From IMG/VR virus record IMGVR_UViG_3300043447_000100, positions 1 to 64,000 of that record: a DNA stretch of 64,000 nucleotides. One strand, 5' to 3'. Below are positions 34,096-38,426 of this stretch, in pieces. The translations under genes and the position numbers were made by a program. Source of the DNA: a virus (taxonomy: Duplodnaviria > Caudoviricetes). How positions within the stretch are numbered: the stretch's first letter is position 1; each line of letters opens with the position of its first letter. The notes below the pieces were generated by a model. The model was not told where the DNA came from. It did not search any database and saw nothing but the letters and a program-made list of their open reading frames with translations.

Positions 34096-34555
34096 GACTC
34101 AAACTAGAAACGTACTCGTGGCAATCCGACACTGCCCGTGGAGAAAGACCAAAGTGGGGTCAATACTAACCACAACAAGTCTCTAAACGCAAAATCTCCC
34201 TCGGAAGAGGATTACTGCGCCCGACAGACTTGAGTCCATCATACTCATACAACGGGCAAACACTATAGGTTCTATCGGTGCTTCGGCGAACGTTCTACCT
34301 TGGTTGTGAAAAATAACAACCGAACAGAAGAAAATTACAGGGGGGAGACCTTGAGCTACGTCTGCGTTATTTACAGCAGATGTGGTTCAAGTGTTTATGT
34401 TTCGCCTCGTTTCACTCGCCGAAACTCGTGATCGTACCGCTTCGCTAAGTACGACACGAGACCTGTAAACAAAAAAAGAATAGGTCAGAAGGCTCTGAAA
34501 GAGCCAATGATAAGACGGAACGGAACGAAGTGGAGTTCCTCTTCGAATGAGAGGA
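34096..34555 (+). ncRNA. Candidate large structured non-coding RNA or structured origin region
   Basis: No ORF; at least ten nested helices, including a 16-bp stem whose three non-Watson-Crick pairs are all G-U on the + strand, plus C(UUCG)G and GGAA tetraloops; ends approximate. Confidence 0.65.
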
Positions 34556-34786
34556 TTAAAAGAAAGGAAGTTTCGTCTTCTTAGTAGTTTCTAAGTTCTC
34601 TTCAATTACCGAATTAATTGCTTCGGTTTGTTTATAGGACATGTTGAGGACATCTACGAATGTAACTCCACCTCTCATGTACCAACTCATCTTCAGTGCG
34701 TTCTTTTCAATCGCATCTGCCTGTTTGACCATATCTTCGGTCAACTTCTCAACTTGGTCAGGACTTTTGTCGAGAAGGATTAACCG
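34556..34786 (-). CDS. gp51-like / tail assembly chaperone C-terminal module, probably made as a -1 frameshift extension of the gp26-like gene
   Basis: LKMSWYMRGGVTFVDVLNMS-type helical motif; frame is open back through the slippery site at the end of gp26-like; no convincing RBS of its own. Confidence 0.7.
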   Translation of the reverse strand, partial: RLILLDKSPDQVEKLTEDMVKQADAIEKNALKMSWYMRGGVTFVDVLNMSYKQTEAINSVIEENLETTKKTKLPFF

Positions 34787-34795
34787 AAAAAATTT
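34726..34795 (-). promoter_or_regulatory. Programmed -1 ribosomal frameshift signal (slippery site plus stem/pseudoknot)
   Basis: A-AAU-UUU-UUC at 34795-34786, 8-nt spacer, 9-bp stem CUUCUCGAC/GUUGAGAAG, loop UGACCA complementary to downstream UGGUCA. Confidence 0.75.
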
Positions 34796-35604
34796 GTATA
34801 GTTCAGTTCAAGTGGTTGTGAATACTCATTACTACAGTGTGAACATTTGATATCTAGAGGAGTGTCACTGTTAGAATTGCGAATTTTACCACTAAACTCT
34901 TTGATAGCAGTGTTAGTTTTAGTATCGCATTTTTCCATGAACTCTATAATGTAAGCATTTTCACGGACAGTTACTTCAGGTGTCTTGATATACTCAATAG
35001 TTTGTGCTACTACTTCAATCAACATTGCTGTTAATTTGTTCATGCTGTCTTTAGATAACTGTTGCTTTTGTTCACTATCTTCCATCTGCTCAAGTTGAGC
35101 AATCATGCGCTGAACTTCAAACTGGCGCATAGCGTTGGCATTTACTTCAGCGTAAGTCAGTGGTCGGAACTTGAATTCAAGATCGCCAATAGTTAGCACT
35201 TCGCTATAGTCTAACTTTCGCTGTTTTTCCATGAGCAGTTTCATCAAATCAACATCAAATTTAGTTGACTCTTCGCACTTAGGGCAAGTGCTTTCAATGT
35301 CTAATTTACCATCAACACTAGCCGCTCTAACTGCTACGATTAGGGCGTCACTATCTAACTCACTCAACTTCCACGCATCTTTTACTGCTGGAACACAGTT
35401 TTCGATAACCTGGACGATAGCTGTGCCGTTGAACAGGGCGTCTGGAGTACGCAGGACAATCTCATCCGCGTTAGTCATAGGGTAAATCGCAACTTCACCA
35501 GTCGGTGATACTTCAACGATGCTAGGATCATAATAGTTTGTGCCTGACGGCAGTTTGTAATAGAACGCTGGACGACGGAAATATTGTTGTAATGGGTTTG
35601 ACAT
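34780..35604 (-). CDS. gp26: Baseplate hub assembly chaperone, gp26-like
   Basis: YYKLPS...IYPMTNADEI...LIVAVRAAS...CPKC...FRPLTY...CSHC...NFF pattern of T4-like gp26 homologues. Confidence 0.75.
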   Translation of the reverse strand: MSNPLQQYFRRPAFYYKLPSGTNYYDPSIVEVSPTGEVAIYPMTNADEIVLRTPDALFNGTAIVQVIENCVPAVKDAWKLSELDSDALIVAVRAASVDGKLDIESTCPKCEESTKFDVDLMKLLMEKQRKLDYSEVLTIGDLEFKFRPLTYAEVNANAMRQFEVQRMIAQLEQMEDSEQKQQLSKDSMNKLTAMLIEVVAQTIEYIKTPEVTVRENAYIIEFMEKCDTKTNTAIKEFSGKIRNSNSDTPLDIKCSHCSNEYSQPLELNYTNFFG

Positions 35605-35678: not shown

Positions 35679-38426
35679 ATGGAAGACGCAGATAAAATAG
35701 TCAACGAACTTAGAGAGATACATCAGTTCTTAAAAGATCAATCCAGCAAAATGTCTGGGTCTGGTTCTGCGGGCAATACATCGTCGCCTGCCGTAAAATC
35801 GTTCGACCGCGGAACTGAGAAAATTGTTGCCGCTATCAATCTGCTTAATGTTTCTATTACGAAGAGCGCCGCTACCACTAAATCACGTGACGATAATTTA
35901 AATAAACTCAATCAAGACTTAGAAAAGTATCTAACAAAAGAAGAAAAGCGTCAAAAGAGAAAAGAAGAATTAGCTGCCGCAGAAGAAAAAGCATCAAAAG
36001 AAGCTATTAAGCAACAAGAAGAAGCCACTAAAACCAATAAAACATATACTGAGGAATTAGAAGAGCAGACAAAAAAGATTAAGGATCAGAATAAAGGCGT
36101 AAGAGATCATGCCACTGCTATTTCTGAGCGAATAAGAGCAGAAAAATCAGCCGCTTCACAAAGTCAAGCAACATGGGAAGTTTATAAGCAAGCTGGTGAT
36201 GCTACTGATATATTGAAGACCAAGTTTTTTGATCTTGCTGGTGATAGTATGGGTGCTCAAATCACATTAAGAGCCTTTGCCGCAGGTCTTGAAGGCTTAA
36301 AGAATTTTACACTATCATACGCAAAATCAATATATGCTGGTGAGCGAGGCAACTTAGCACTAGCTAAATCATCAACTGAAGCAGTTAAGCCACTGATAAG
36401 TCTGACCGACGCTCTTGGTAACATGCTAACATTTGCGTCATTCTTCATGCCTGGTAGTTTAATAATGAAGGGTCTGACCTTTTTTACTGGCATTGCTCTT
36501 AAAAGTGCAGCAAAGGGAGCAGAATTAGCTGCCGAAGCAAACGAGAAAGCAGCCGAACAGACAGACAAACTTTTCAAAACCTTCAATGCTCTTAGTAAAG
36601 CCGGCATTAATACAACCGGCGGTCTAGACGGCATCTTTGATCAACTACAGACGCTAGGCATGACAATGCCTCAGATCGAGCAGTTTTCTCAAATCTTAGC
36701 AAGCAATACTAAGCACTTGCGTGTATTCGGCGGCACAATGGAAGGCGGTGCTAAACAATTCGCAACAGTAGCGGGTCAGCTTTACAAGAGTGATATCGGT
36801 AAGCAGTTTGAACGAGCAGGCATAGCTGCCGAAGAACAAGCCGATATGACAATGAACTATCTGTCACTACAGGCAAGACTAGGCACCCTACAGAAAAAGA
36901 ACACTGAAGATTTAATCAGAAGCAGTGCTGAGTTTGTAAAAGAACTTGACATGGCAGCAGAACTATCAGGTTCGACTCGCAAGCAACAGATGGAAGAGCG
37001 TGAGATGGCAATGGCCGACGACCGCTTCCGTAGTGCGTTGATTGATGCTACTAACAGAAACGATCAAAAAGAAATTGCTAGACTACAGATGTATCAAAAA
37101 GCAGCCGCAATGGCAGGTGCAGCTGGTGATACAAAAGGCAGACAAGGTATTCTACACTACGCTGCAGGTGGTCCAGTAACAGAAGGCTCAGTGGCGGCAA
37201 TGCGTCAATACGGCCTTCAAACAATGGGCCGAGGCGGCACAGATGAATCCGCTATCGCTGGGCACATGGCTCGTGCGTCGAGACAAAATCAACGCACATT
37301 CACTGGCGTCAGTAGATACACTGGCACAATAGCAGGTGTCCAAACTGACGTTGCTTCACCAGCAGACTTTAGCACAAGAATTGAAGGTTTACTAGACGCC
37401 GCAAGAAAAGAAGGCTTCGAAGGCAACTTACAAGATTTCTTGAAAACAGAACAGGGCAAACGATTACTAGGCGGCGATAAGAAAGTAGCGCAAACAGTAG
37501 ATATCAATAGAACACAGCAAGCCGCTGGTATGTATATGGATTCTGCTGTTAACAAGTTAGATTTTTTTGCTGATCTTCAGAAATCAGCATCTGAAACTTT
37601 TGCTAAAGCAGTAGGTGAATTTAGTAAGACTGTTGGCGGCAAACATCCTGCCGGAGGCGTACCAGGAGGATTGGGAACAAGAACACCGGTGGCACCACCC
37701 GCTGGTAATCCTGGTGGAGTTGGTTCAAGGGCAGTATGGTCTTCGAGTGAAGTATCTGCGGCAAAAGAAGCATTGAAAGATCCTAATCTAGGTAGAAGAG
37801 ATCGAGCATATTACGAAGATATGTTGGCAAGACAATCTTCAAATGAATCTCCTTCTGCGGATATACTAGACTTTGCTGGAGGTGTTGCAGGCAACCCTCA
37901 AAACTTTGAAAAGTTGAATAGCGATCTGAAACAGAGTGTTCTAGCGGCGGCGCAAGAATATACCAACGCAACAGGCAAGAAATTAAAAATCAATAGCGCA
38001 CACAGAACTCCTGAAGAACAAGAACGAGTTCGAGGACAAGTTGGTGGTTTAGCTGCCAAGCCAGGTACTAGTTTACATGAAAAAGGCATGGCCATCGATA
38101 TTGATGGCTCAAGAGATCCACTCGTTCAGCAAGCACTAATGAAACAAGGATTGAAGAATGTAGCAGTGCCTGGAGAACCATGGCACTGGCAAAAGTTTGC
38201 CCTTGGTGGTATCTCTAATAGCCCTGCTATTTTCGGCGAAGCTGGTCCAGAAGCCGCTGTTCCGCTACCAGATGGCCGTTCAATTCCAGTCACAATGAAC
38301 GATAACGGTATGACAAAAGAGCTACTTGACGCAGTAAGAGTGTTGATTTCTAAGCAGGACACTATGATTGAACACTTAGAAGACACTGCTTCACAAAGCA
38401 GAAAACTTGTTCGTGCTACTGTCTAA
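35679..38426 (+). CDS. Tape measure protein with C-terminal peptidase M15 (LAS Zn peptidase) domain, ~915 aa
   Basis: Long helical Ala/Lys/Gln-rich body; INSAHRT..EQ...AAKPGTSLHEKGMAIDI...EPWHWQ; terminal FALGGI...GEAGPEAAVPL motif; start moved to ATG 35679, downstream of the promoter. Confidence 0.8.
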   Translation: MEDADKIVNELREIHQFLKDQSSKMSGSGSAGNTSSPAVKSFDRGTEKIVAAINLLNVSITKSAATTKSRDDNLNKLNQDLEKYLTKEEKRQKRKEELAAAEEKASKEAIKQQEEATKTNKTYTEELEEQTKKIKDQNKGVRDHATAISERIRAEKSAASQSQATWEVYKQAGDATDILKTKFFDLAGDSMGAQITLRAFAAGLEGLKNFTLSYAKSIYAGERGNLALAKSSTEAVKPLISLTDALGNMLTFASFFMPGSLIMKGLTFFTGIALKSAAKGAELAAEANEKAAEQTDKLFKTFNALSKAGINTTGGLDGIFDQLQTLGMTMPQIEQFSQILASNTKHLRVFGGTMEGGAKQFATVAGQLYKSDIGKQFERAGIAAEEQADMTMNYLSLQARLGTLQKKNTEDLIRSSAEFVKELDMAAELSGSTRKQQMEEREMAMADDRFRSALIDATNRNDQKEIARLQMYQKAAAMAGAAGDTKGRQGILHYAAGGPVTEGSVAAMRQYGLQTMGRGGTDESAIAGHMARASRQNQRTFTGVSRYTGTIAGVQTDVASPADFSTRIEGLLDAARKEGFEGNLQDFLKTEQGKRLLGGDKKVAQTVDINRTQQAAGMYMDSAVNKLDFFADLQKSASETFAKAVGEFSKTVGGKHPAGGVPGGLGTRTPVAPPAGNPGGVGSRAVWSSSEVSAAKEALKDPNLGRRDRAYYEDMLARQSSNESPSADILDFAGGVAGNPQNFEKLNSDLKQSVLAAAQEYTNATGKKLKINSAHRTPEEQERVRGQVGGLAAKPGTSLHEKGMAIDIDGSRDPLVQQALMKQGLKNVAVPGEPWHWQKFALGGISNSPAIFGEAGPEAAVPLPDGRSIPVTMNDNGMTKELLDAVRVLISKQDTMIEHLEDTASQSRKLVRATV

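Follow-up and report, generated by a model that had tools for sequence, protein, structure and literature searches.

The window analyzed here is a stretch of 64,000 nucleotides (nt), positions 1 to 64,000 of the IMG/VR record IMGVR_UViG_3300043447_000100, which originates from an uncultured giant phage related to T4 and comprises 183,666 bases with an estimated completeness of 52%. The minus strand of the window carries a gene similar to gene 26 of phage T4 (gp26-like gene, 35604-34780), which ends with a TAA stop codon at 34782-34780 and encodes a short product of 274 amino acids (aa). The 3' end of the gene reads ACA AAT TTT TTC GGT TAA and includes the slippery heptamer U UUU UUC (34792-34786, minus strand), positioned in the X XXY YYZ phase relative to the codons AAU UUU UUC. 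The -1 frame is closed just upstream of the T-run. Beyond the T-run it reads FFRLILLDKSPDQVEKLTEDMVKQ...KTKLPFF and forms an extension open reading frame (ORF) of 78 codons counted from the first Phe (34792-34556, minus strand, stop at 34558-34556), which resembles the C-terminal part of T4 gp51. A putative stimulatory hairpin, evident from the sequence and its predicted fold, is separated from the heptamer by an 8-nt spacer and has a 9-base-pair (bp) stem with one G-U pair (34777-34769 / 34753-34745, minus strand) and a 15-nt loop. A reading made earlier from the sequence only had proposed that a -1 frameshift at the T-run joins the gp26-like and gp51-like ORFs. The coordinates that it gave for the heptamers, -1 ORF, stem, loop, and the complement of the loop are all correct, and the product sizes of 274 aa and about 349 aa are borne out by the codon count: the predicted transframe product has 273 + 76 = 349 aa, where the 76 new codons are counted after the two Phe codons. 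The heptamer, its phase, and the -1 ORF are kept in the homologues in which the two frames are split. It is very probable that a programmed -1 ribosomal frameshift at the conserved UUUUUUC produces a short and a long protein from this single baseplate-assembly gene.

The gp26-like protein matches the family PF12322 (T4_baseplate) with an E-value of 2.5e-20 and 73.5 bits, compared to the gathering cut-off of 24.5, and the baseplate hub family phrog_150 with an E-value of 2.5e-21. The gene provides the only PF12322 match in the whole 183,666-base record. The extension of the window on its own has no match in Pfam or PHROGs, and a blastn search of the region against a phage collection gave no match. 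The extensions of members of the Rak2 group match phrog_18291, a family of unknown function.

Relatives of the locus were collected in three scans, which yielded 236 metagenomic loci with 187 distinct junctions; the scans overlap and the phages are related, so the counts do not represent independent events. The sequence T TTT TTC is in phase in 84/84 loci from IMG/VR, in 79/79 analyzable metagenome loci (the 80th leaves the end of its contig), and in 73 of the 74 split loci seeded by the extension motif. For the 74th, L245 (IMGVR_UViG_3300032242_000890), only the translation was read, not the nucleotides. This locus has an in-frame TAA approximately 40 codons ahead of the Phe-Phe site, followed by an end of ...SSFFVRA and an intact -1 extension; the additional TAA could be a sequencing error, a sign of a pseudogene, or a site of readthrough. 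In total, U UUU UUC is identical and in phase in 187/187 distinct junctions. The 0-frame stop is positioned 1 to 12 codons past the heptamer, depending on the lineage, and a -1-frame stop lies directly upstream of the heptamer in 64/187 junctions. The -1 ORF has 78 or 79 codons in all complete loci (82/82 from IMG/VR and 73/73 from metagenomes), and conservation of its peptide sets in at the slip site, with FFR.(R/K)LL.

The same arrangement is present in isolated jumbo phages. The sequence NNT TTT TTY is in phase in 15/15 isolates (Atu_ph07, Phosso, Xoo-sp13, GAP32, CBB, Ecwhy_1, PA5oct, XbC2, RaK2, 121Q, XacN1, RAS14, RsoM2USA, Yen9-04, and 7t3), 2-12 codons ahead of the stop of the gp26-like gene, and in all fifteen a homologous -1 ORF of approximately 72-84 codons opens exactly at the heptamer. 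A tblastn search with the -1 peptide retrieved jumbo phages only, and the alignments start at the slip site. The slippery motif and its phase, the conservation of which had been suggested as a check, are thus maintained in both the metagenomic junctions and the jumbo isolates. However, of the two overlapping heptamers noticed in the window, both of which are present there, only U UUU UUC is kept in the relatives. The second heptamer, A AAU UUU (34795-34789, minus strand), which is also in the X XXY YYZ phase, is specific to a subgroup, because it needs the codon AAT before the Phe codons, which is found in 31/187 junctions; 129/187 junctions have GAT.

The Phe-Phe dipeptide encoded by the T-run is invariant at the protein level, including in T4, and the conservation of the run is therefore partly explained by coding. 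The choice of codons goes further. The codon preceding the two Phe codons always ends in T, although the residue that it encodes varies (D, N, S, T, and G in the uncultured relatives, also H, A, R, and V in the isolates). The first Phe codon at the junction is always TTT, and the second is always TTC, which is the minor codon: elsewhere in the same genes TTT accounts for 67.5% of Phe codons, and GAT for 68.6% of Asp codons. T4, which has two genes, spells Phe-Phe as TTC TTT, without a slippery run. The invariance of these positions despite the codon bias indicates that the constraint acts on the nucleotides, beyond the Phe-Phe dipeptide.

No start codon is conserved at the -1 ORF. The fourth -1 codon, which overlaps the 0-frame stop where that stop is one codon after the heptamer, as in most loci, is ATA, TTA, CTA, or GTA in 126/187 junctions and ATG or GTG in only 17/187. 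A joined coding sequence is absent from 15/15 jumbo phage records and from the inspected records of S-PM2, KVP40, and P-SSM2, so current genome records would miss the long product. The GenBank records of PA5oct, RaK2, and RsoM2USA lack an annotated gene at the extension ORF. Other records call the extension ORF a "hypothetical protein", with starts that differ and are arbitrary.

A 66-nt segment of the window that includes the 9-bp hairpin folds with a minimum free energy of -17.6 kcal/mol (z = -2.13), and 6/200 shuffled sequences are equally stable. Since the fold of the window is only moderately unusual, the case rests on the comparison with relatives. A gap-free alignment of the hairpin region (A3) was assembled from 71 distinct relatives. 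Columns 16-22 (AGCUUCU) are complementary to columns 46-52 (AGAAGCU), and the inner stem varies in sequence yet stays complementary, as in ACGCC/GGCGU, ACACC/GGUGU, and AUAUCUU/AAGAUAU. When a fixed structure is applied to the alignment, 77% of the cells pair, compared to 40-51% with displaced partner columns; the count underestimates the pairing, because the inner stem is not in the same register in all sequences. Covariation of the stem, another check proposed for the frameshift, is evident: the score is 0.237 against 0.178 for shuffled alignments, 0/500 shuffles reach the observed value, and both sides have changed in 7 of the 12 hairpin pairs.

The stability of the hairpin also stands out within the individual relatives. 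The 40-nt segment past the heptamer has a mean minimum free energy of -13.3 kcal/mol, compared to -4.0 kcal/mol for other windows of the gene region, and it is the most stable window in 37/71 relatives and among the best 5% in 64/71. The arms of the hairpin are formed by rare synonymous codons, as counted over the 187 junctions. Codon 5 of the -1 frame is AGG (Arg) in 105/187 junctions, whereas AGG represents 3.7% of Arg codons elsewhere; codon 6 is CTT (Leu) in 139/187, compared to 13.5% of Leu codons; and codon 16 is AAG in 114 of its 125 Lys codons, compared to 26.3%. Among the jumbo isolates, the hairpin is strong (percentile of at most 0.03) in Atu_ph07, Phosso, Xoo-sp13, XacN1, PA5oct, and RsoM2USA, and marginal in 121Q (percentile 0.09). 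An Rfam scan returned nothing above chance.

The loop of the hairpin might also pair with a downstream segment. The proposed H-type pseudoknot would have a 6-bp second stem, recognized by complementarity, between UGACCA in the loop (34760-34755) and UGGUCA (34731-34726, both minus strand). However, in the minimum free energy structure of the window, UGGUCA pairs with a second copy of UGACC, in a nested hairpin (UUGACC 34744-34739 / GGUCAA 34730-34725, minus strand) that competes with the pseudoknot. The UGACCA/UGGUCA pairing is kept in two loci from the window's own subclade (L023 and L107), and a third locus (L024) has GGACC/GGUCC, which corresponds to one compensatory double change. In L025, a different 6-bp complement, GAGCGA/UCGCUC, was found by eye in another register. 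The duplex between the loop and the downstream segment has a percentile of 0.04 in the window and of at most 0.05 in 18/71 relatives. Taken per sequence, such duplexes have a mean of -4.4 kcal/mol, compared to -2.9 kcal/mol in control windows, and the positions of the duplexes differ between sequences. No fixed-column helix between the loop and downstream segment stands out over the 71 relatives: the best mean pairing is 0.62 against a background of 0.33 (standard deviation 0.10, 770 trials). The pairing is thus possible and kept in the subclade of the window, but no helix is shared by the relatives, and the pseudoknot is a doubtful element that does not appear to be a feature of the family.

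In some relatives the extension is joined to the gp26-like protein without a frameshift. When the -1 peptide was used in an exhaustive HMMER search, 151 proteins matched, and among the 150 matches listed 17 proteins of 320-351 aa carry the match at their C-terminus. They are gp26-like proteins whose reading frame runs on into the extension without a shift, with PF12322 present in 4/4 of those scanned. The alignment spans their junctions, such as ...LDLDWSSSFRNKILTQTPEE.... The protein P0366 is another fusion, with a length of 345 aa and 58% identity to the extension of the window; it carries only PF12322 in the precomputed domain table. At the DNA level, 6/80 loci from the scan seeded by the extension motif are fused in frame, five of which are distinct. 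The heptamer is present in 0/5 of these, and no stable hairpin was found at the equivalent place in the five loci (percentiles 0.52, 0.10, 0.32, 0.72, and 0.44). The occurrence of the heptamer and hairpin only where the frames are split is the pattern of a frameshift signal rather than of a protein-coding constraint. The fusions L183, L184, and P0366 lie within the frameshifting clade and have the junction ...NYCEYFR(V/A)(R/K)LLYM...; in L183, the sequence GAA TAT TTT CGG is in place of the run of six T. The positions of these fusions inside the frameshifting clade imply that changes between the split and the fused state take place over short evolutionary distances.

The extension can be related to the baseplate hub assembly proteins of T4. 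The T4 proteins gp26 (208 aa) and gp51 (249 aa) are listed as "hub assembly chaperones" in Table 2 of a review of T4 morphogenesis (Leiman et al. 2010, PMC3004832). As the sequence-only reading stated, they are encoded by separate genes: in the gene order of T4, gene 26 is followed by gene 25, and gene 51 is located beside gene 26 in a divergent orientation, ahead of genes 27, 28, and 29. T4 gp51 matches PF12322 over residues 1-201 with an E-value of 3.9e-52 and 177.5 bits (215.6 bits for T4 gp26), phrog_150 matches it along its whole length, and a BLASTP comparison of T4 gp26 with gp51 gives an E-value of 2e-6. Because gp51 itself matches PF12322 and phrog_150, the two T4 proteins are, as judged by these matches, paralogues that form a short/long pair. 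PF28602 (Gp51_C) is an additional domain carried by homologues of gp51. When a profile built from 52 extension sequences (A7) was compared with one of the gp51 family (A8, 33 sequences), the last 37 columns of both aligned, with an hhalign probability of 85.5% and an E-value of 5.7e-6. The natural fusions align with gp51 from end to end (42%, E-value 2.6e-4), and their junction F-R-x-(K/R)-L-(L/I)...PEE-I corresponds to F-K-L-L-L-N-P-D-E-I of gp51. Judged by these profile alignments, the extension is probably a relative of the C-terminal domain of T4 gp51. The PF12322 match of gp51 and the C-terminal alignment together suggest that the short product is the counterpart of gp26 and the transframe product the counterpart of gp51.

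The label "gp51-like" for the extension therefore holds, and the extension also corresponds to the small "gp51" ORFs of phages S-PM2, P-SSM2, and KVP40. The label had been suspected to be wrong, since gene 25 follows gene 26 in T4; the suspicion was dropped after the PF12322 and C-terminal matches of gp51 were found, and it is also ruled out by the correspondence to the small ORFs of the cyanophages and KVP40. The extension has no similarity to T4 gp25. In T4, too, the next gene begins in the -1 frame: gene 25 overlaps the end of gene 26 at TAATG. T4 gp26 ends with ...EFFELL, like the transframe FFR.RLL and unlike the 0-frame ends of the frameshifting genes. Sequence searches of the PDB with the fused profile and the gp51 profile gave no match.

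T4 has two PF12322 genes, whereas the partial record of the window and nine other whole phage records (PA5oct, RaK2, Atu_ph07, XacN1, S-PM2, P-SSM2, KVP40, Aeh1, and LR756508) have one each. In both T4 and the window, the gene is divergent from, and adjoins, the hub and tape-measure block. However, in T4 the short and long forms are made by two paralogous genes, whereas here one gene is accompanied by a predicted frameshift. The extension of the window type also differs from T4 gp51 in that approximately 30 additional residues (the WYMRGG region) separate the junction from the Gp51_C-like part.

T TTT TTC is also in phase in 4/4 T4-like isolates, the cyanophages P-SSM2 and S-PM2, the vibriophage KVP40, and the Aeromonas phage Aeh1, with a -1 ORF of 59-62 codons behind it in each. 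In P-SSM2 the junction reads AGT TTT TTC GTA TAA, the small ORF aligns with the gp51 family at an hhalign value of 93.8%, and the downstream hairpin has an energy of -15.6 kcal/mol and a percentile of 0.01. In S-PM2 the corresponding values are TCT TTT TTC GCA TAA, 90.3%, -14.2 kcal/mol, and 0.01. The junction is GAT TTT TTC GAC TGA in Aeh1 (hhalign 32.7%) and GAT TTT TTC GTA TAA in KVP40 (hhalign 6.9%), and the hairpins of these two phages, with percentiles of 0.39 and 0.34, are unremarkable. The -1 ORF is annotated as a separate gene of 55-57 aa, "gp51 baseplate hub assembly catalyst", in S-PM2 (S-PM2p208), P-SSM2 (PSSM2_015), and KVP40 (KVP40.0327). The annotated ATG of the small gp51 gene lies within the hairpin in P-SSM2 and S-PM2, which would hinder independent initiation there. 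The small gp51 ORFs resemble the extension of the window in that they are positioned directly after gp26 in the same -1 frame, with the same T TTT TTC in phase and, in the two cyanophages, a hairpin. They differ in having an annotated ATG of their own and only 59-62 codons, whereas the clade of the window has no conserved start and 78 codons.

A frameshift from gp26 offers an explanation for two oddities of annotation that are in print. In a comparative study of T4-like phages, the gp51 of cyanophages and vibriophages is described as approximately 20% of the length of the T4 protein, without the first approximately 200 residues, and gp51 as "missing only in Aeh1" (Sullivan et al. 2010, PMC3037559). 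The short gp51 would be explained by its N-terminal part being supplied by gp26. Aeh1 (NC_005260, about 118.8-119.0 kb) has a 60-codon gp51-like -1 ORF with no Met in its first 20 codons, which would not be called as a gene, hence the "missing" gp51. No statement in print that the small gp51 ORFs are frameshift products was found.

In the proposed mechanism, most ribosomes would read AAU UUU UUC GGU and stop at UAA, producing the 274-aa protein that corresponds to T4 gp26. Some ribosomes would pause over U UUU UUC because of the hairpin that starts 8 nt downstream. The two tRNA-Phe molecules could then re-pair one base back, from UUU UUC to UUU UUU, and translation would continue in the -1 frame for 76 codons. 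The 349-aa product would have a tail related to the Gp51_C domain of T4 gp51. The ratio of the short to the long form would be set by the RNA signal, and one gene would provide the short/long pair for which T4 has the paralogous genes 26 and 51. We infer that ribosomes do shift at this site and that both products serve as chaperones in the assembly of the hub and tape measure.

Several observations weigh against the frameshift. The fold of the window itself is only modestly better than chance. No outstanding hairpin is present in 8/15 jumbo isolates (the enterobacterial Rak2 group and RAS14, percentiles 0.24-0.89), and the hairpin after the heptamer does not stand out in Aeh1 and KVP40. The existence of lineages fused in frame shows that the frameshift is not obligatory for the family. 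The T-run is absent from the uncultured phage LR756508 (L013), which has an extension-like ORF with its own ATG in the +1 frame; it is the only relative with the extension in another frame, and the relative frame is otherwise constant among the split homologues. In the LR756508 locus (2180-2540), the gp26-like protein ends with ...NFLFPTE, the ATG of the ORF is located 12 codons before the stop, and the hhalign value is 49%. Lastly, an ATG is found just after or overlapping the stop in the cyanophages, KVP40, Atu_ph07, and Phosso, as ATGA in the latter two.

The ATG codons belong to an alternative in which the small ORF is a gene in its own right, whose translation starts independently or by termination-reinitiation (in the window at TTG 34744 or ATG 34732), and in which the T-run merely encodes Phe-Phe. 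Separate coding sequences are annotated in S-PM2, P-SSM2, KVP40, Phosso, GAP32, 121Q, and other phages, and the invariance of Phe-Phe as protein, even in T4, also agrees with a separate gene. However, the absence of a conserved start and the onset of peptide conservation at the slip site, upstream of any start, are at odds with it. With initiation at TTG 34744 or ATG 34732, 16-20 conserved residues would be lost, and the TTG directly follows the 3' arm of the hairpin. The constraint on synonymous positions, the natural in-frame fusions, the lack of an early Met in the -1 ORF of Aeh1, and the hairpin around the annotated ATG in P-SSM2 and S-PM2 speak in the same direction. Separate initiation may occur in the cyanophages, KVP40, Atu_ph07, and Phosso, but it cannot explain the clade of the window, and for the locus as a whole a separate gene is improbable.

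The two frames could alternatively be fused by transcriptional slippage, in which RNA polymerase adds one U at the run of six T in some of the messenger RNAs. All split homologues have a homopolymeric run of 6-9 T, and rare variants could escape data at the level of contigs. Productive transcriptional slippage usually needs about 8-9 T, whereas the run has only 6 T in 187/187 uncultured junctions. The covarying hairpin located 5-9 nt downstream, at the spacing of ribosomal -1 signals, has no role in polymerase slippage, and the strict order TTT TTC, with no T past the run, fits the tandem re-pairing of tRNA-Phe. Contigs from two runs labelled RNA-Seq, a label that is itself a guess, have no indel at the junction, which is weak evidence. 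Slippage of the polymerase appears slightly less probable still than a separate gene, and the likelihood that the split of a single ORF results from gene decay or from a sequencing or assembly indel, to which homopolymers are prone and at which the in-frame versions in some relatives might hint, is negligible, because 236 loci of many samples and 19 independently sequenced isolate genomes all have the same split, contigs of four runs from different studies bridge the junction without indels, and the near-identical loci L103-L106 agree, so that an assembly artefact is effectively refuted.

A programmed -1 ribosomal frameshift is the preferred explanation for the window, and it could be ancestral and general in the T4 superfamily, including the cyanophages, the schizo-T4 phages of Vibrio and Aeromonas, and Rak2-like and other jumbo phages. 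T4 would then be derived from this state by a duplication that resulted in a truncated gene 26 and a fused gene 51, and the pair would be the counterpart of G/GT of phage lambda. The chances of this wider scenario appear evenly balanced. If it is correct, it explains both the marine gp51 that is "too short" and the "missing" gp51 of Aeh1, and the fixed ratio of short to long products provides a mechanism-level role for two T4 genes of decades-long unclear function. T4-type phages are among the most abundant viruses of oceans and lakes. Tuning or abolishing the shift in culturable relatives would be a direct route to the roles of gp26 and gp51 in hub assembly. No published report of a gp26/gp51 frameshift was found in the full-text literature outside subscription journals, and the passages of the PA5oct paper, PRFect, Atkins et al. 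2016, and Sharma et al. 2014 that are reached by search terms contain nothing relevant to the frameshift.

The T4-type neighbors of the gp26-like gene in the window include genes for a gp46-like nuclease, a tape-measure-like protein, and the gp20 portal. The tape-measure-like gene (35679-38426, plus strand) is positioned outside the frameshift signal and is divergent from the gp26-like gene according to the ORF list, as had been noted. It matches the tape measure family phrog_1292 with residues 838-890 (E-value 9.2e-9). The protein has 915 aa when counted from ATG 35679, and the ORF is open from TTG 35538. Residues 751-813 have weak matches to M15-type peptidases (VanY and Peptidase_M15_3, E-values around 0.01). 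The extension ORF is followed immediately by a non-coding gap (34096-34555), the only large one in the vicinity, which is rich in inverted repeats.

The closest parallel in mechanism is the pair of tail assembly chaperones gpG and gpGT of phage lambda, members of a group of genes for which a conserved -1 frameshift was reportedly described by Xu, Hendrix, and Duda in 2004 (Mol Cell 16:11). In both systems a tail-assembly gene adjoins the tape measure gene and specifies two proteins, or is predicted to: a short one, and one that is extended at the C-terminus through a -1 shift close to the 3' end of the tail-assembly gene. The products also resemble those of G/GT in that they are apparently not components of the virion. 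The virion mass-spectrometry table of phage CBB lists CBB_251, the tape-measure-like neighbor, with 29 peptides, and CBB_247, whereas CBB_250 and CBB_249 are absent from it; in the record of PA5oct the neighbor is flagged as detected by mass spectrometry, and the gp26-like gene is not flagged. However, hhalign comparisons with lambda G and T gave no similarity (probability 0.1-0.6%). The heptamer of lambda is G GGA AAG, compared to U UUU UUC here. The lambda gene is located between the tube and tape measure genes on the same strand, whereas the gp26-like gene is divergent from the tape-measure-like gene, and other genes are positioned upstream of it in Xoo-sp13, XacN1, RAS14, and Atu_ph07. The target here would be the baseplate hub, unlike that of G/GT. 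The proposal that gp26 and gp51 are the G/T equivalents of this lineage is therefore supported with respect to the logic of the short and extended forms, but not with respect to sequence or gene position. The comparison points to an analogy of mechanism, not to membership in one family, and the gp26/gp51 genes would add a second, non-homologous family of tail-assembly genes that relies on a conserved -1 frameshift.

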